Below the pieces are notes generated by a model. The model did not search any database. It was not told the origin of the DNA and saw nothing but the letters and a program-made list of their open reading frames with translations. Of a stretch of DNA of 48,583 nt, positions 11,860 through 23,136 are shown piece after piece. Origin of the DNA: Bacteroidota bacterium (GTDB taxonomy: Bacteria > Bacteroidota > Bacteroidia > Bacteroidales > M50B96); the NCBI GenBank assembly GCA_024762835.1, contig JANTGP010000003.1, positions 1 to 48,583 on the forward strand. Reading direction: 5' to 3'. How positions within the stretch are numbered: position 1 is the stretch's first letter; each line of letters starts with the position of its first letter. The position numbers and the translations under genes were made by a program.

Positions 11860-13092
11860 TTAATACCCAAATCGCGGATTCACAACATTATTATAGATAG
11901 AACCAAAGCTGTATGAAATACCAAAATTGGTGTAATATGAATATTGTGTTGCCAGTTGTCTCTGCTGAAGCAAAACTTCTTCCTGTGTTGCAGCCAAGTT
12001 TGGCAATGATAACTGGTCGTGTATAAGATTGGCATTTAGATTCAGATTTATTGACAGACCTCTGAAAAGATTGAGGTTAATTTCTGTATTGACGTTCAGA
12101 TTATTTTTTGTAAAATCGTGGAGATATGCCCCTCCTGATACACCTGCCTCTAGTGAACCCCACTTGGTTATATATTTATAGGCAATATTCAATTCCTGAC
12201 GTATTAAATTCTCACTAATCTTATCATATAAGGTAGTGTCAATATAATCATTATGAGTGTATCCCGCTAAATAGAGTAAGCGTAATTGCTTTGTTGTTGA
12301 TTCGGAATACGGAAAGATATTATACTCAATAGCAGCATTTGCCGAATAATTGAGCTTCATATTATTGTAGGTTGAGCTTCCTAATTCTATTTGAGCACCC
12401 GAAGACCAATGTTCGCCCATACTTTTTACAACCAGACTTTCAAAACGTCTGTTTTTATTGATATTTACATAATCGCTATTTTCTAATTTATATACCGATT
12501 TGCTATTCCGGTTTGACAAAGACATCTCAATTTTCCAGTCTTCGGTTATCCTGTTTGCGGAGGCATTTGTCCAGATAGAAAAATTGCTATATGACTCTTC
12601 ACCATGTCCCCAGCCGCCCAAATTTAGTTCGTAAATCCAGTTGTCCCATTTATCAACAATCTCTGTTGTGGTTTCGTGGTTATAATCAACCGAGAACAAA
12701 TTAGCTAGTGGTGTTTTTGCGATATATCTTATCAAACCAAACTTTATTGTTCTAATTTGTCCATCTCTTATATCTTCTTCTGAGCTATTAGGCAGCGATA
12801 CAAACTTAATTGTATCAGTCATCTTACTAAAATTTCTCTGTCCGTTAAAGCTTATTGCAAATTCTTTGCCTCCCGCACCTGTTGTTTGCGATGTAATAAT
12901 AATATGTACATCAGCATCTTTTCTGTCGCGTACATAATTAACATAAGGTATCTCATTCTTAATATGATTGATATCACAAAAGTTACAGTCGATAAATACA
13001 CTTATTTTGTTTTGGTTTATAGTATCCTTTTGTGAAAATACTCCGGTTACAAAGACTAATAGTAAGAATGCTGTTGAAAGTATAATTTTCAT
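11860..13092 (-). CDS. Putative outer-membrane beta-barrel protein (DUF481-like) with N-terminal CxxC domain
   Basis: Signal peptide, FIDCNFCD, many amphipathic beta-strands, aromatic C-terminus (VVNPRFGY). Confidence 0.6.
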   Translation of the reverse strand: MKIILSTAFLLLVFVTGVFSQKDTINQNKISVFIDCNFCDINHIKNEIPYVNYVRDRKDADVHIIITSQTTGAGGKEFAISFNGQRNFSKMTDTIKFVSLPNSSEEDIRDGQIRTIKFGLIRYIAKTPLANLFSVDYNHETTTEIVDKWDNWIYELNLGGWGHGEESYSNFSIWTNASANRITEDWKIEMSLSNRNSKSVYKLENSDYVNINKNRRFESLVVKSMGEHWSSGAQIELGSSTYNNMKLNYSANAAIEYNIFPYSESTTKQLRLLYLAGYTHNDYIDTTLYDKISENLIRQELNIAYKYITKWGSLEAGVSGGAYLHDFTKNNLNVNTEINLNLFRGLSINLNLNANLIHDQLSLPNLAATQEEVLLQQRQLATQYSYYTNFGISYSFGSIYNNVVNPRFGY

Positions 13093-13360
13093 AATTAAAG
13101 TTTAGTTTATTTGAAAACAAAGAAATTAAGATTTTGGTATAATTAGTCGAGTAAATTTATCTTATAAATATATGTTCTAGATATTCCCATTCCTAGTAAT
13201 ATGAGTAAAGGTGATTATCTTTATATTAAAACGAAGCAAAAATATTTTTTGAAATGATACAATTAGTATGTAGCTAATCAAATGTAAAAATGTTTTATGG
13301 TTAATTTTTACCAGATAAGACTAAAGGGATAGTAGTTTTGAATAATCAGGGCTAAGATGT

Positions 13361-14059
13361 TCACAATATATTCATTCCGAAAACATCTGCAAATTTTAAT
13401 TTTACAATATTCTTGACAAAGTCAATATCTTGTTTTTTGCCAAGCTCTTTTTCAAGCGAAGTAACACCTTTATCAGTAAACCCACATGGGTTTATGTATG
13501 AAAAAAAATCAAGATTTGTGTTTATGTTAAATGCTAAACCGTGCATACTAACAAAACGGCTTGTTCGCACACCAATAGCACAAATCTTGCGGGCATTTGT
13601 TTTGCTGTCTGCATCGAGCCAAACACCGGTTGCCCCTTCAAGCCTTGATGATTCAATGTTAAATTCTTTAAGGGTTTGAATTATTACTTCTTCAAGAGCA
13701 TTGATGTAATCTTTAAGTCCAAGTGAGAAATTATCCAAATCAATTATCGGATATACAACGAGTTGTCCCGGACCATGATAAGTTATATCTCCGCCTCTGT
13801 TTGTTTTAAAGAATGTAACATCAAGCTTTTGCATTTCAACAAAACTTGTAAGCAAGTTGTTTTCCGAGCCACTTTTCCCTAAGGTGTAAACATTTGGGTG
13901 TTCGACAAAAAGCAAATAGTTTAGTGTTTCAACCTTTTTCTCAGATTTTTTATTTGCCAATTTCCTGGCAATTGTTTTATCAAATAGGTTTTCTTGATAA
14001 GCCCAAGCTTTTTTGTATTCTATCAACCCTAGGTCTTTAAATGAAACTTCTTTATTCAT
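13361..14059 (-). CDS. lipB: Lipoyl(octanoyl) transferase
   Basis: EHPNVYTLG, RGGDITYHGPGQLV, RKICAIG, HGLAFN, INPCG. ATG at 14059 (MNKEV) preferred to the ORF-track start at 14128. Confidence 0.95.
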   Translation of the reverse strand: MNKEVSFKDLGLIEYKKAWAYQENLFDKTIARKLANKKSEKKVETLNYLLFVEHPNVYTLGKSGSENNLLTSFVEMQKLDVTFFKTNRGGDITYHGPGQLVVYPIIDLDNFSLGLKDYINALEEVIIQTLKEFNIESSRLEGATGVWLDADSKTNARKICAIGVRTSRFVSMHGLAFNINTNLDFFSYINPCGFTDKGVTSLEKELGKKQDIDFVKNIVKLKFADVFGMNIL

Positions 14060-17640: not shown

Positions 17641-17889
17641 ATGAAAATACAACAAATACAAGCAGAAAAACTTGATCTAATTGGTTGGATTTATAATATT
17701 CAGGATATTTCTATTATTGAGAAATTAAAGAGTATACAGAAAAATACTATTCTTGAAAAATATGAAGTTTCGCTTAAACCAATGAGCGAGAAAGAACTAT
17801 TAGACCGGGCAAAAGAAGCAAATAAAGCTATTGAGAATAACGATGTAACTTTGCAAGACGATTTAAAAAAAGAAACTGAAAACTGGTAG
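17641..17889 (+). CDS. Putative type II antitoxin
   Basis: 82 aa ORF ending 1 bp before a RelE/ParE gene; acidic C-terminal end (DDLKKETENW). Confidence 0.7.
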   Translation: MKIQQIQAEKLDLIGWIYNIQDISIIEKLKSIQKNTILEKYEVSLKPMSEKELLDRAKEANKAIENNDVTLQDDLKKETENW

Positions 17890-17890
17890 A

Positions 17891-18184
17891 ATGAATATTA
17901 TTTGGACTAATCCGGCTAAAAATGATTTAAGAAAAATATTTAATTACTTTAAAAATAAAGTTTCTTTAAGATTAGCTCAAAAGATTGTTAATTCTATTCT
18001 TACGAATACCTCTATTCTTAAAACCCAAAACATTGGAACAAAGGAACTTTTACTTGCACAGCTTGAACAAGAACACCGTTTTATTATTGATGGTAACTAC
18101 AAAATAATTTATATTATTAAAGGCAATACTGTTTATATTACCCATGTTTTTGATACTCGCCAAAATCCTACTAAACTAAAATAA
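17891..18184 (+). CDS. Type II toxin, RelE/ParE family
   Basis: MNIIWTNPAKNDLRKIFNY...YKIIY...VYITHVFDTRQNP. Confidence 0.9.
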   Translation: MNIIWTNPAKNDLRKIFNYFKNKVSLRLAQKIVNSILTNTSILKTQNIGTKELLLAQLEQEHRFIIDGNYKIIYIIKGNTVYITHVFDTRQNPTKLK

Positions 18185-18270: not shown

Positions 18271-19320
18271 ATGAAGAATCTGATAAAAATAGCAATACTA
18301 ATGTTTCTTGGTGCAGTAGTATTTTCATGCGTGCCTTTAAATCAATTTAAAGAAGTAAAAACCCGTAATCTTGATTGTAGTCAGGAACGTGACTTGTTAA
18401 AAGTACAAAACGAACGATTGATTGTTGATACAACCGAAATGGGCGCTGAATTACGTTCACTTCTTGCCGACCAAAAGAATATGTTGAATGATACGGTTGA
18501 ATTGGGTAAGAAATACAGACGTCTTAAAGATTTATACAATAGTGCAGTTAAAATGAACGAAGATTTGACAGATAGTAAAAACGCTCTTGCAAGAGGAAGT
18601 GCTGCCGAGACAAAAAAGTTATTATCTGAATTGCAGTCTGCACAAGAAGACCTGCTTAGAAAAGAAGATGATTTACGCCGACTTGAAAGAGCTCTGAATA
18701 AGAAAAAAGAAAATCTGGACGCATTGCAAGCTGAGCTTGAAGACAGCAAGGCCATTTTGGCTCAGAAAAACCTGGAACTTGAAGAAAGAAACTCTCGTCT
18801 TATTGAGCTTGAGAATATGCTTAACAGAAAAGACTCGATTGTTAATGCTCTTAAAGATAAAGTTGCAGATGCTCTTGGCCAGTTTGAAAACGACGGTTTA
18901 AGCGTTGAGCTTAAAAACGGGAAAGTTTATGTTCGTCTCGAAGAGAAGTTATTATTTAAAACGGGGAAATGGGATGTTGACCCAAAAGGGAAAAAGGCAT
19001 TGGCAAAATTGGCTGCTGTATTAGAGCAAAATCCCGATATCTCAATTATGATTGAAGGACATACTGATGATGTACCTTTTAACGGAAAAAGTCAAATAAA
19101 AGACAATTGGGATTTAAGTGTAAAAAGAGCAACTTCAATTGTGAAAATATTGTTAGATGGTACAGGCATTGACCCTAAAAGACTTACAGCGTCAGGCAGA
19201 GGTCCGTATTTCCCTGTTGACCCTGCTAAAACGAAAGAAGCTCGTCAGAAAAATCGTCGTACAGAGATTATTCTTACCCCAAAACTTGATGAACTTTTTC
19301 AATTGCTTGAGAATAATTAG
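18271..19320 (+). CDS. OmpA/MotB-family peptidoglycan-binding lipoprotein with long coiled coil
   Basis: Lipobox VFSC; heptad-rich middle; IEGHTDDVP, NWDLSVKRA, KNRRTEI. Confidence 0.9.
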   Translation: MKNLIKIAILMFLGAVVFSCVPLNQFKEVKTRNLDCSQERDLLKVQNERLIVDTTEMGAELRSLLADQKNMLNDTVELGKKYRRLKDLYNSAVKMNEDLTDSKNALARGSAAETKKLLSELQSAQEDLLRKEDDLRRLERALNKKKENLDALQAELEDSKAILAQKNLELEERNSRLIELENMLNRKDSIVNALKDKVADALGQFENDGLSVELKNGKVYVRLEEKLLFKTGKWDVDPKGKKALAKLAAVLEQNPDISIMIEGHTDDVPFNGKSQIKDNWDLSVKRATSIVKILLDGTGIDPKRLTASGRGPYFPVDPAKTKEARQKNRRTEIILTPKLDELFQLLENN

Positions 19321-19437
19321 TAGCATGAAAGATTGCTAATATTTACAAGTTGGGTTGCATACAGTGAATCAATTCCAAGAAAGCATGTTGACCGATTAAC
19401 ATCTACCATAAAACTAAAGACCTTAAATTGTATAGAA

Positions 19438-19958
19438 ATGAGTTTAGAATTAACAAAACGAGAAAAATATTCAACCTTAGTTATAAGACCTAATAATATT
19501 AATTGGGGAATTGCAGGTTTCGTATCATTAATTTTTCTAGGATTTATTTATATCCTTATTCAGGCAATTATTCAATTGATAACTGGAGACTTAAACGTTT
19601 TATTTATAATATTTATAGGACTTTTCTTTTGGGGAGCCTATTACAATTTTTTCAACTTCTACTATATGATTTTAGGAAATGAAGTAATTGAAATTCATGA
19701 TAGTTTTATCAAGCAGACAAGAGCTGTTTGGAAAATAACTCATTCAAAAAAATATTTGAAATCCAGAATTAAAAAAATAGAAATAAATTATTCATCAAAT
19801 GAATTTGGATCAGTTGGACTTGAAATGTTTGGACTATCAAATATCAATGTGACCTTCAAATATGGAAAAAAAAAAGAATGATTGGTAAACAGATTAAAAT
19901 GGATGAAGCTAAAATTATTATTGGAGAATTGGAAAATAGAAAGTACGCAACCCAATAA
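19438..19958 (+). CDS. Hypothetical membrane protein (2 TM) carried by the cassette; frameshifted at A10 run 19866-19875
   Basis: ATG at 19438 (MSLELTK). As written it stops at 19881. One extra A gives YGKKKRMIGKQIKMDEAKIIIGELENRKYATQ*, ending at TAA 19956-19958 at the attC-like R'' box. Confidence 0.7.
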
Positions 19959-20074
19959 TGTGTATAGTGCATAAGGGTTTCAGAGGTTTTCGAGCGGTTT
20001 CACCCGTATCAATTTTGGGTAGTGATTTGATAGGTTTGAAGCACGCAATCCTTTACGACACCATACACTCAACG
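19950..20074 (+). repeat. attC-like imperfect palindrome (recombination site)
   Basis: R''-like ACCCAAT. GTGTATAGTGCATAAGGGTT pairs with AATCCTTTACGACACCATACAC with an unpaired base. Inner GCGGTTTCACCCGTATCAA pairs with TTGATAGGTTTGAAGCACGC. Confidence 0.75.
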
Positions 20075-20095
20075 ACAAAAGCTTATCTTGAGCGA

Positions 20096-20956
20096 TTACT
20101 TATCGTAGAAAAGGATTGAGACGTAATCAACAACCTTATCGGAAGGGTAGACTTCACCTGAGTGTCCTCGCTTAAGAATGTGGGCTTTAGGATTATTATT
20201 TGAGAGTTTTGAAAATTCCATCAAGCTCATTATCGGGCCGTAACCGCAGGCCGAAACATTATGCTTTTTAACTTGCTTAAAAACCCCCTTTGTATTCAAT
20301 TTTAGAACTTCATCCAAAACGTAATCGTCCTGTTGCCTGCCAAAATCGGGTTCTTCGTAATGGCTAAAATCAGACGAAGCAATAAACAAAACCTTCTTGC
20401 CGGAATCATTCATGGCTGAATAAACAGCATTAGCCACAAGCTTTGCATTTTCTACATTTTGCTTTTTCATACAAATTGGAACAATGCTAAACTCGTAATC
20501 AAGATAATATCTGAGAAATGGCAGCATTACTTCTGCAGAGTGTTCGTATTTATGAGCTATCCCTGAAAAGGGTAAATCCAACAAAGCGGCAAATTCAATA
20601 TCTACGCTTATGTTCCCAAGTGGACTTTCCCATTCTGTGTTGTCATCAATTGAAATTTCTTCGCCATATCCGGTGTGGTTAGGATTAACAATAACTATTG
20701 TATCAAAAACCTCTTTACCCTGTTTTAGTAATTCAAAAAAATGAATGGCCTGATAAGCTGAAAAAATATAACCGGCGTGAGGAATAACAGCACCAATAAT
20801 ATTGTTATTGGCAAGTGAATAATTAATATTATTTCTTTCGGCAAGAGCTACTTGTGCAATTAAACTTCTTAGCTCTTTTTCATTCGAAGGATAGAATTTT
20901 CCTGCAACAGCAGCCTTTCGTATAAGGCTATTATTTTTATTATTAAAGCTCAACAT
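20096..20956 (-). CDS. amrB: AmmeMemoRadiSam system protein B (MEMO1 family)
   Basis: RKAAVAGKFYP, PHAGYIFS, PNHTG, EHSAEV, ASSDFSHY, SACGYGPI, VVDYVS. Confidence 0.93.
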   Translation of the reverse strand: MLSFNNKNNSLIRKAAVAGKFYPSNEKELRSLIAQVALAERNNINYSLANNNIIGAVIPHAGYIFSAYQAIHFFELLKQGKEVFDTIVIVNPNHTGYGEEISIDDNTEWESPLGNISVDIEFAALLDLPFSGIAHKYEHSAEVMLPFLRYYLDYEFSIVPICMKKQNVENAKLVANAVYSAMNDSGKKVLFIASSDFSHYEEPDFGRQQDDYVLDEVLKLNTKGVFKQVKKHNVSACGYGPIMSLMEFSKLSNNNPKAHILKRGHSGEVYPSDKVVDYVSILFYDK

Positions 20957-22638: not shown

Positions 22639-23136
22639 ATGGAGCACATCATTTATAAAGAATCACAGAAGTTCGGAAAAGCTTTAATTTGGATTGTATG
22701 CGGAAGTTTAACTGCTCTGTTTCTTTGGGCTATTATTCAACAATTGTTATTTGGTATTCCTTTTGGAAACAATCCCATGTCTGATGAAGGTTTATTTCTA
22801 ATGTTAATTATTCCGCTTTTACTTTTTATACTTTTCGTTAAAACTGAATTACAAAGCAGAATAGATGAAGCCGGAATTCATTACCGCTTATTTCCACTTC
22901 AAATAAAAACAAGAGATATAAAGTGGCATGAAATAGAGAAATTGGAAATTAGAAAATACAAAGCACTGAGGGAATTTGGTGGTTATGGTATAAGGATTGG
23001 CTTTTCGAGTAGGGCAATAAATGTAAGAGGTGATACAGGTATTCAGATTACATTTAAAAACGGGAAAAGACTTCTAATTGGTACCCAAAAACCACAAAAG
23101 ATAGAAGAAGTATTAAAGAAACTTGGGAAATTATAA
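22639..23136 (+). CDS. Hypothetical membrane protein (DUF6141-like)
   Basis: Two TM segments around FGNNPMSD; EFGGYGIR; LLIGTQKP. Confidence 0.7.
   Translation: MEHIIYKESQKFGKALIWIVCGSLTALFLWAIIQQLLFGIPFGNNPMSDEGLFLMLIIPLLLFILFVKTELQSRIDEAGIHYRLFPLQIKTRDIKWHEIEKLEIRKYKALREFGGYGIRIGFSSRAINVRGDTGIQITFKNGKRLLIGTQKPQKIEEVLKKLGKL

Follow-up and report, generated by a model that had tools for sequence, protein, structure and literature searches.

A stretch of DNA of 48,583 nt from a Bacteroidota bacterium, contig C3 (JANTGP010000003.1) of the draft genome G000, contains a segment of 725 nt (positions 19350–20074, + strand) that resembles a single gene cassette of an integron, set between an OmpA-family (MotB-like) gene and a convergent Memo-like (AmrB-type) gene. 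The locus raises the question of whether the segment really is such a cassette and, if it is, what kind of system could have placed it there alone. The whole stretch is called the window here. The initial annotation had described a solitary integron-like cassette with a split attC site at a non-attI position, and had raised the possibility that Bacteroidota have a cassette system of their own, in which a dedicated tyrosine recombinase distributes single cassettes over the genome. From the evidence presented below we consider it very probable that the segment is a single mobile cassette of an integron-type system common in this Bacteroidota order, delivered in the way outlined further on.

The cassette is composed, in order, of a 5' end reading TTGGGT..., a gene for a small membrane protein with two helices, and a 125-nt attC-like site ending ...CAACG, and its G+C content is 29.5%, compared with 34.3% for the window. 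The 5' edge carries the first member of an inverted repeat (GTTGGGTTGCATAC, 19349–19362, +), and the second member (GTACGCAACCCAAT, 19943–19956, +) stands before the attC-like site. Both are complementary at 12/14 positions, and a repeat search returned 13 nt at 92%; the cassette 5' end proper (TTGGGTTGCATAC, 19350–19362, +) is the distal half of the R' box and is complementary to 19943–19955. In the whole genome the 14-mer occurs, with up to 2 mismatches and the pair itself included, 10 times in 6,561,526 positions, i.e., at a frequency of approximately 0.0015 per kb per strand. A sequence this rare would not be found by chance approximately 600 nt upstream and on the correct strand. At the 3' end, the imperfect palindrome terminates in ...CACTCAACG (20074). 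The segment coordinates, the core at its start, the 12/14 reverse complement and the stop of the hairpin at 20074 had all been given exactly in the initial annotation, as had the rejoining of 20074 to 19350 into a complete site. This rejoined site (19950–20074 plus 19350–19355, joined by coordinates in a script) is 131 nt long and folds as a single hairpin, with a free energy of −26.2 kcal/mol for the bottom strand versus −21.5 for the top strand, and versus −16.5 for the site as it lies in the window. The bottom strand of the rejoined site has a z-score of −4.6, and none of 300 shuffled sequences folded as well. By energy alone the hairpin in the window is not unusual (top strand z = −0.06, bottom strand z = −1.30); the evidence that it is real comes from conservation and covariation.

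The same borders are seen in other genomes. A 901-nt scaffold of Maribellus maritimus (L109) carries a homologous cassette with approximately 84% DNA identity from GTTGGGTTGCATAC to the attC 3' end, and beyond both borders the two DNAs are unrelated; in Maribellus the cassette is preceded by the last part of a different hairpin site, ...CCAACCG|TTGGGT. Loci L046 and L047, from two genomes, share a common cassette end and diverge from AACGTT onwards. On the right edge (20074), conservation stops at ...AACGTT, in the same column, in at least 31 of 35 copies aligned from other genomes. We also analyzed assembled contigs, rather than raw reads, of four public metagenome runs from two studies (X1–X4). 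Contigs of X2, X3 and X4 leave the window right after 20074 and continue with TTGTGCC, TTCTCGG and TTATGGG, respectively, and one X1 contig departs from it directly after 19351 (...CAAGTT|ATGGCC...). In X2, a 25-nt loose end was also present before 19953. Stretches that the contigs leave uncovered, and variants present in small shares, were given little weight. These points of divergence, together with the arrays and loci described below, bear out the earlier reading of a cassette geometry with crossover at G|TT.

The same contigs bear on whether the arrangement might be a chimera of metagenome assembly, in which the repeated attC sequence served as the joint. G000 comprises 317 contigs, the depth of the attC region in X1 is 4–8 times that of its flanks, and the X1 unitigs break at 19351 and within the site, all of which would fit such a chimera. 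However, the depth of the cassette in X1 (12.5 + 6.25) equals that of the flanks (18.5–19.4), a 9324-nt X1 contig extends from 19969 over the junction and on into the Memo gene, 19893–20320 is contained without a difference in a contig of X3, and the pieces are present in all four runs. A chimera is thus very improbable.

The attC-like site begins with an R''-like box (ACCCAAT, 19950–19956, +; family consensus nnnYAAC, from alignments), followed by the L'' arm (GTGTATAGTGCATAAGGG, 19960–19977, +), which pairs with the L' arm (CCTTTACGACACCATACAC, 20050–20068, +). Compared with L'', the L' arm has one additional base, and it shows two conserved A.C mismatches in the top strand. Between the arms lies a central part (19978–20049, +) that shows 80–90% sequence conservation across families with a weak predicted structure, and the site closes with the spacer TCAAC and the crossover G (20069–20074, +), the right junction being G|AC at 20074|20075. 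The window box agrees with RYYYAAC at 6/7 positions, and the rebuilt R' reads GTTGGGT. We searched for this site by BLAST (E up to 1e-6) in an order-wide sample of 401 genomes from 237 genera and found the family in 49 genomes and 44 genera; because only two candidates were scored per genome, these counts do not give the number of sites in each. Copies of 19951–20074 in other families of the order are 82–92% identical, whereas the flanking genes reach only 66–72%. In every locus mapped the site stands 3' of an open reading frame (ORF) on the same strand, in line with the expectation in the initial annotation that a related hairpin family would occur at gene ends elsewhere. Alignments of 35–37 copies yielded the consensus nnnYAAC-AAT-GTGTATAGTGCATAAGGG ... 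CCCTTACGACACCATACAC-TCAAC-GTTRnnn, with spacers of 5 nt on the R' side and 3 nt on the R'' side.

Compensatory changes support the outer hairpin, as expected of an attC site. Among 37 copies, 10 of the 20 pairs in the outer (L) helix show changes on both sides, and in a second haplotype, which has AATTC/AAATC for AGTGC/ACACC, two pairs are changed on both sides in 11–16 sequences. Paired cells amount to 78.2%, compared with 74.2% in shuffles (reached in 0 of 500) and 29–39% with a slid partner; the covariation score is 0.162 versus 0.103 in shuffles (again 0 of 500) and 0.04–0.08 when slid. The inner 70 nt or so are conserved in sequence with almost no covariation, and the inner helices hardly vary. 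Of the A.C mismatches, the one at columns 26/127 is unpaired in 35 and the one at columns 31/121 in 34 of the 37 copies; both correspond to G.T pairs in the bottom strand. The consensus fold shows the strand asymmetry of attC sites (−18.9 kcal/mol for the bottom versus −15.6 for the top strand). Contigs of X2 and X3 carry the same site arms (19957–19983 and 20055–20074) around a different 72-nt centre.

This conserved centre, unusual for attC, the invariable position 3' of an ORF, and a frame that is open through the whole element (ORF 19958–20119) could also be taken to indicate a repeated structure unrelated to recombination, such as the RNA of a 3' untranslated region, a terminator or a REP/MITE-like repeat, with the complementarity at 19350–19362 arising by chance. 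The Rfam comparison suggested in the initial annotation came back empty, with no match over 19940–20080 at E up to 10 and none in the whole window at gathering scores. Variants of the element lack the ATG of this frame, and there is no T run of the terminator type. Neither an RNA nor a terminator would explain the borders, the closure of the cassette or the one-strand arrays beside recombinases that are described next, and we give this explanation very little credence.

If a cassette derives from a circle cut at G|TT, the variable bases of its R'' box should be complementary to its own 5' end. We analyzed this in the complete genome G036, where a simple pattern search, for which shuffling gives an expectation of approximately 1 match per 60 kb, detected at least 59 sites, all of them on the same strand, from 490309 to 543035. 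The majority are short, with 67 nt and the same set of boxes; seven are long. The four variable R'' bases were perfectly complementary to the cassette's own 5' end (the four bases after the preceding GTT) in 52 of 58 cases, as predicted by this circle closure, whereas the own downstream box matched in 18/59 and random pairs in 687/3306 (21%). The six exceptions mostly have long spacings, and intervening sites may have been missed there. Closure extends to 9/9 bases in five loci of G021, G033 and G311, in which the 5' end lies 0.8–3.2 kb upstream of the site. In the window it comprises 4/4 bases (ACCC/GGGT), with complementarity extending over 13 nt. Crossover at G|TT and circle closure, the signature of integron-type cassettes, are thus present in the window and in the family.

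Within the G036 array (contig C1, loci L021–L023), 22 of the 58 intervals, of 305–313 nt, carry the same ORF-less unit (R'' GCACAAC), which is also located 3' of the attI-like junction of this genome (see below) and of the long site at 531132. In addition, three identical cassettes for a 294-aa lipoprotein stand in tandem at 507361–510225.

Cassettes also occur away from arrays. G033 has insertions of one and two cassettes between housekeeping genes, and G000 itself has several cassette loci on contigs other than C3. A second copy of the window cassette was not found by BLAST against G000. A family profile built from 11 copies matched G000 once on C3, at the window site, and found two weaker relatives on C256 and C11. 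Two looser searches of G000 were discarded as counts: a regular-expression search produced 33 matches compared with 57–76 in shuffles and was uninformative, and a generic arm-pairing search produced 19 compared with 42 in the reversed-genome control and missed the window site owing to its bulge. Some of their matches resembled real sites on inspection, namely one on C72 (regular expression) and those on C13 and C29 (arm pairing). The C72 locus (13019–13901) consists of a long-type attC-like site followed by a same-strand PIN-type toxin-antitoxin pair, and the site adjoins a paralogue of the S46-like peptidase of the window (both read from translations).

The window itself holds neither an array nor a recombinase gene: with the single profile match on C3 and no tyrosine-recombinase match on this contig, the statement that the 48 kb contain no integrase, attI or second site holds. 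One-strand arrays or sites beside a tyrosine recombinase were found in G036, G278, G310 and G033. The G036 enzyme has 507 aa, and the array edge is located 593 nt downstream of its gene; in G278 and G310, the distance from a related gene to the long-type sites downstream of it is 3.6–3.7 kb, and in G033 a recombinase gene precedes the site by 0.9 kb. Gene and cassettes point the same way in all four genomes. A different layout occurs at G244 C81:6235–9962, where a recombinase match on the minus strand and a family site on the plus strand, separated by 2.6 kb, point away from each other, which is the classical integron arrangement.

To classify these enzymes we used two models, TIGR02249 for IntI (curated cut-off, 265 bits) and NCBIfam NF040815 ('site-specific tyrosine recombinase/integron integrase'; cut-off, 220 bits) for the XerA type. 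The recombinases carry the Phage_integrase and SAM-like domains of Pfam. The G036 enzyme reached 242 bits with NF040815 and 178 bits with TIGR02249, and its best solved relatives are XerA-like proteins, followed by IntI4. Only 20 of its residues face 63 residues of Vibrio IntI4 (2a3v, residues 180–243), which leaves approximately 43 without counterpart, and positions 182–238 of the IntI model are unmatched in the recombinases. The IntI-specific domain is therefore missing from these enzymes. Six genomes with the site family yielded no match above the IntI cut-off, and canonical IntI genes are present in 7 of the 401 genomes of the order. In a small tree with an unresolved backbone, four canonical IntI proteins formed a separate, well-supported clade with the array recombinases outside it; two rows of this tree meant as Xer proteins of G000 were wrong ORFs (branch length 10) and were ignored.

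The initial annotation had called for a genome-wide search for an IntI-like recombinase. G000 does have a recombinase of its own, encoded at the very start of contig C114, with at least 552 aa and cut off by the contig end (...GHSDIKTTLI). It is XerA-like and shares 35% identity with the catalytic part of the G036 enzyme; with 162 bits it falls below the IntI cut-off. Its family has approximately 60 full-length representatives among the best 150 matches. These recombinases have an N-terminal extension of 230–300 aa, in which Pfam HARP was detected in 18 of 40 relatives of the C114 enzyme. HARP domains bind forked DNA. The N-terminal part of the G036 recombinase has one close relative only in a word-based search. 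By hand count, the 3' end of the recombinase gene lies 100–600 nt from the contig end in 28 of 67 minus-strand rows versus 4 of 83 plus-strand rows at contig starts, and three plus-strand genes (L117–L119) end 0.18–1.3 kb before the contig end, which suggests that in many drafts repeat-rich arrays downstream of the recombinase remained unassembled. A G036-type recombinase match was obtained in 35 of 48 attC-positive genomes and in 129 of 352 others; this hand tally is given little weight since the genomes include related, non-independent ones and the threshold admits other XerA-like recombinases. Altogether, the arrays beside recombinases without the IntI insert in four genomes, the insertions between housekeeping genes in G033 and the additional loci of G000 bear out the proposal of a Bacteroidota system that has its own tyrosine recombinase and scatters cassettes.

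We next turn to the place that the cassette occupies. The left half of the target, ATATTTACAAG (19339–19349, +), ends at the left junction G|TT (19349|19350), and with up to 1 mismatch this 11-mer occurs 150 times in 6.56 million positions. It matches, at 10/11 positions, the end of a repeated element of G000 of approximately 200 nt, which ends ...GAGTATATTTGTCCATATATTTACTAG|TT with the conserved core ATATTTACTAG|TT and was found at at least 10 loci, with copies on C13, C29, C45, C50, C93, C100, C110, C123, C135, C163, C172 and C293. The element contains the decayed last 35–60 codons of the HARP-type recombinase gene (...HSDIKTTLIYTH...SPIEYLGLKDKK...) and stands behind ordinary genes (obg, adk, and purE-like and aroK-like ORFs, named from translations). 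It is followed by different cassette-type starts (TTGTGTG, TTGTGCA and TTATGGG); on C13 and C29 the order is element, cassette, 121-nt site and one more cassette. A similar region precedes the first cassette of G036 (...GACAAAAGAGGTATAT...ACCACTTAG|TT). Its position, the cassette starts behind it and this resemblance lead us to read the element as a putative attI-like landing pad. We had also considered the repeated element of G000, over approximately 185 nt, as an attC site, and discarded this because it has no end-to-end hairpin fold. In five copies the left edge is the same and bears a terminal inverted repeat of 9 nt (CTAGTAAAT), in the manner of a mobile unit that is not autonomous.

Judged by its sequence, then, the window cassette occupies a site resembling the attachment core of its own system. 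The deduced target (...ACAAG|AC...) reads GAC, and to this extent the description as a non-attI site with GAC was right, as was the remark that it departs from the GWT reported for IntI1; it was not right in so far as it implied an arbitrary site, given the 10/11 bases of the attI-like core. After the crossover G the window has AC where the landing pads have TT.

The likeness to the element can be turned around: the cassette might be the last remnant of a decayed array or attI platform, the 11 bases before the junction being a residue of attI. The elements behind housekeeping genes in G000, each followed by cassettes, agree with this; so does a minor X1 contig with a different cassette start after ...CAAGTT and, in our own reading, an alignment with gaps of approximately 17/21 bases before the junction to the end of the element. 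On the other hand, the OmpA-like stop codon is only 29 nt from the junction, nothing beyond the last 11–19 nt resembles the element of approximately 200 nt, and the right junction falls exactly on the crossover G, as from recombination and unlike a random deletion. We regard decay as an unlikely origin and insertion as the more plausible event.

The cassette gene is not intact as assembled. The ORF (19438–19881, +) encodes 147 aa with two predicted membrane helices and belongs to no known family. An A10 run (19866–19875, +), one base short of the Maribellus copy, ends the frame, and the displaced C-terminal coding part (19876–19958, +; ...RMIGKQIKMDEAKIIIGELENRKYATQ, then TAA), approximately 27 codons, continues in another frame and aligns to the C-termini of five homologues. 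These proteins of 173–185 aa, among them one of Maribellus maritimus (83% identity) and one of an uncultured Carboxylicivirga, match both pieces, and we estimate that the intact gene encoded approximately 175 aa before the loss of 1 nt in the A10 run. The initial annotation had the restored stop codon overlap the R'' box. A TAA at 19956–19958 does overlap it; the gene, being frameshifted, reaches this codon only after a frame change in the run. An X2 contig, from another study, carries A9 at the same run (2.7x depth, which is weak evidence), and neither length restores the frame; slippage, decay or an assembly error could each account for it. Pfam gave no significant match for the cassette protein. 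Its neighbours in the Atlas are unnamed Bacteroidota proteins, and the named families bPH_7, Ycf4 and Eros scored only 0.83–0.85 there and were kept as leads only. Another protein of the window, the DUF6141 protein encoded at 22639–23136 (165 aa), has the same build, in that a small C-terminal domain accompanies two membrane helices, and it shows weak local similarity to the cassette protein (E = 0.004 over 23 residues). On a scaffold of Algoriphagus sp. (L110, 4001–4531), whose genome belongs to another order, a homologue with 54% identity to the cassette protein is part of a same-strand row of short ORFs; the sequence 3' of it has no obvious resemblance to the present site family.

Both flanking genes lie outside the cassette. 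The OmpA-family (MotB-like) gene on the left (18271–19320, +; Pfam OmpA, 8.5e-19) is a conserved chromosomal gene, 29 nt from the cassette, and the Memo-like (AmrB-type) gene on the right (20096–20956, −; Pfam Memo, 3.5e-58) follows after 21 nt, convergent with the cassette. Homologues of the OmpA-like gene in relatives and metagenome contigs (40–80% aa identity) align to the last residue, and the sequence 3' of the stop codon is different in each relative. The cassette has the same orientation as the OmpA-like gene, with no predicted terminator upstream of it. Further upstream, at 17641–18184, is a small gene pair, the second member of which encodes a ParE-family toxin (Pfam, 5.8e-9); no attC-like site was seen around this pair.

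We propose the following course of events for the inserted cassette. It would most likely have been released from an array in circular form, with ...CAACG joined to TTGGGT.... The attC site would then have folded as a single-stranded hairpin, probably of the bottom strand, which folds better, and the system's tyrosine recombinase would have exchanged strands at G|TT with a double-stranded site between the OmpA-like and Memo/AmrB genes, where the left half of the target, ATATTTACAAG|, imitates the attI-like core ATATTTACTAG|TT. The likely enzyme is the XerA-like recombinase of G000 (C114), with its HARP-like N-terminal modules and without the IntI insert, or a relative of it. We infer the strand and the enzyme that acted, as well as insertion rather than array decay, from the comparisons above, and the time of the event and any current activity of the system are to be taken in the same way. 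As regards expression, read-through from the OmpA-like gene could transcribe the promoterless cassette.

Several observations weigh against this reading. The site lacks the arrangement of extrahelical bases of attC: the surplus base and the spacer of greater length are found on the R'-L' arm, which is also the crossover arm, so that the IntI mechanism cannot simply be transferred. The right junction reads G|AC, and other junctions of the family read G|TT or G|AT. The copies of the recombinase gene in G278 and G310 have an internal stop, and the recombination activity of these enzymes is a prediction from their sequences. The frameshift suggests that the insertion is not recent or that the gene is not under selection. 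Among the listed contigs, none spans the left junction with at least 31 bases on each side. Finally, the empty site, ATATTTACAAG|ACAAAAGC, was not found in 41 relatives searched by DNA, 34 metagenome loci and the 3' flanks of 8 loci, because the OmpA-like and Memo genes are adjacent in no sampled relative; as they are non-adjacent in the genome loci of all 8 relatives and in the 34 metagenome loci, these loci provide neither an empty site nor a contradiction.

The element thus belongs to a known kind, the isolated integron-type cassette or single attC site lacking an integron integrase (SALIN), and the system from which it comes is probably an undescribed variant of the integron principle. A broader reading, for which we see the chances as evenly balanced, is that the lone cassette strayed from an undescribed integron-like branch widespread in Bacteroidales/Marinilabiliales. 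This branch would have arrays of up to at least 59 cassettes, XerA-like recombinases without the IntI insert, HARP-like modules that possibly replace the insert in reading attC hairpins, a reversed bulge arm, and, in G000, at least 10 dispersed attI-like pads, each with a decayed recombinase 3' end, which together with look-alike sites would let cassettes spread across the chromosome instead of remaining in a single array. Integrons are defined by IntI, the special domain of which reads the flipped-out bases of the folded attC, and the standard integron detection tool looks for exactly IntI with this domain. If our reading is true, folded single-stranded sites can capture cassettes independently of the IntI insert, most of the gene-cassette pool in Bacteroidota of marine and sediment habitats has gone unnoticed, and how a recombinase without the IntI domain picks strand and orientation becomes a testable question.

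The literature covered contains no description of integrons in Marinilabiliales/Prolixibacteraceae or of HARP-domain recombinases; supplements, which possibly hold Bacteroidota counts of SALINs and of attC clusters that come without an integron integrase (CALINs), were outside this coverage. For Bacteroidetes, the IntegronFinder 2.0 paper, in the portion consulted, mentions a single complete integron, that of Salinibacter ruber M1 (PMC9024848). A different picture is suggested by the present data, with one attC family in 49 of 401 genomes of a single order, large arrays beside another kind of tyrosine recombinase and a reversed site geometry. Like classical integrons and the Vibrio VCR arrays, the system combines a promoterless ORF with an imperfect-hairpin site, and it shares with classical integrons the two boxes (nnnYAAC for R'' and GTTRnnn for R'), crossover at G|TT, a circle that rebuilds the site, a bottom strand that folds better, and long one-strand arrays of homogeneous sites with an adjoining tyrosine recombinase. 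With 131 nt, the window site is within the 57–141 nt given for attC in the consulted part of PMC5027507. The differences concern both enzyme and site. The recombinases lack the IntI insert, score below the IntI cut-off, and are encoded in the same direction as the cassettes (G036, G278, G310 and G033). In classical attC sites, according to the same part of that source (Nivina et al. 2016, PMC5027507), the extrahelical bases are located opposite the AAC triplet of the bottom strand; here it is the R'-L' arm that has the additional base and the longer spacer, the spacers measure 3 and 5 nt instead of 5–6 nt, and many families share a conserved site centre. With XerA/XerC/XerD-type recombinases and IntI, the enzymes share the catalytic and core-binding domains, and they differ from them by the N-terminal extension of 230–300 aa and the approximately 43 IntI4 residues without a match. 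The loci on C13, C29 and in G033, which carry 2–3 cassettes without a complete recombinase gene beside them, resemble the cassette clusters described in the part consulted of PMC4889954, but the G000 clusters begin with the attI-like element that holds a decayed recombinase 3' end.

The closest likeness is to SALINs. In the consulted parts of PMC4889954 and PMC9024848, single attC sites were formerly set aside as possible false positives, and the insertion of SALINs at genomic sites by IntI1, with a GWT target, is described in the section seen of a preprint (bioRxiv 10.1101/2022.09.11.507474). Like a SALIN, the window cassette has one coding sequence and one attC site, with no integrase or other att site nearby on C3, and it is chromosomal, outside any integron, with junctions exactly at the crossover base. 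It differs in having GAC rather than GWT, in a left target half that copies an attI-like core, and in host lineage and recombinase type. If this reading holds, the window cassette is a clean natural example of a SALIN-like insertion outside an array, at a site imitating the attachment core of its own system.

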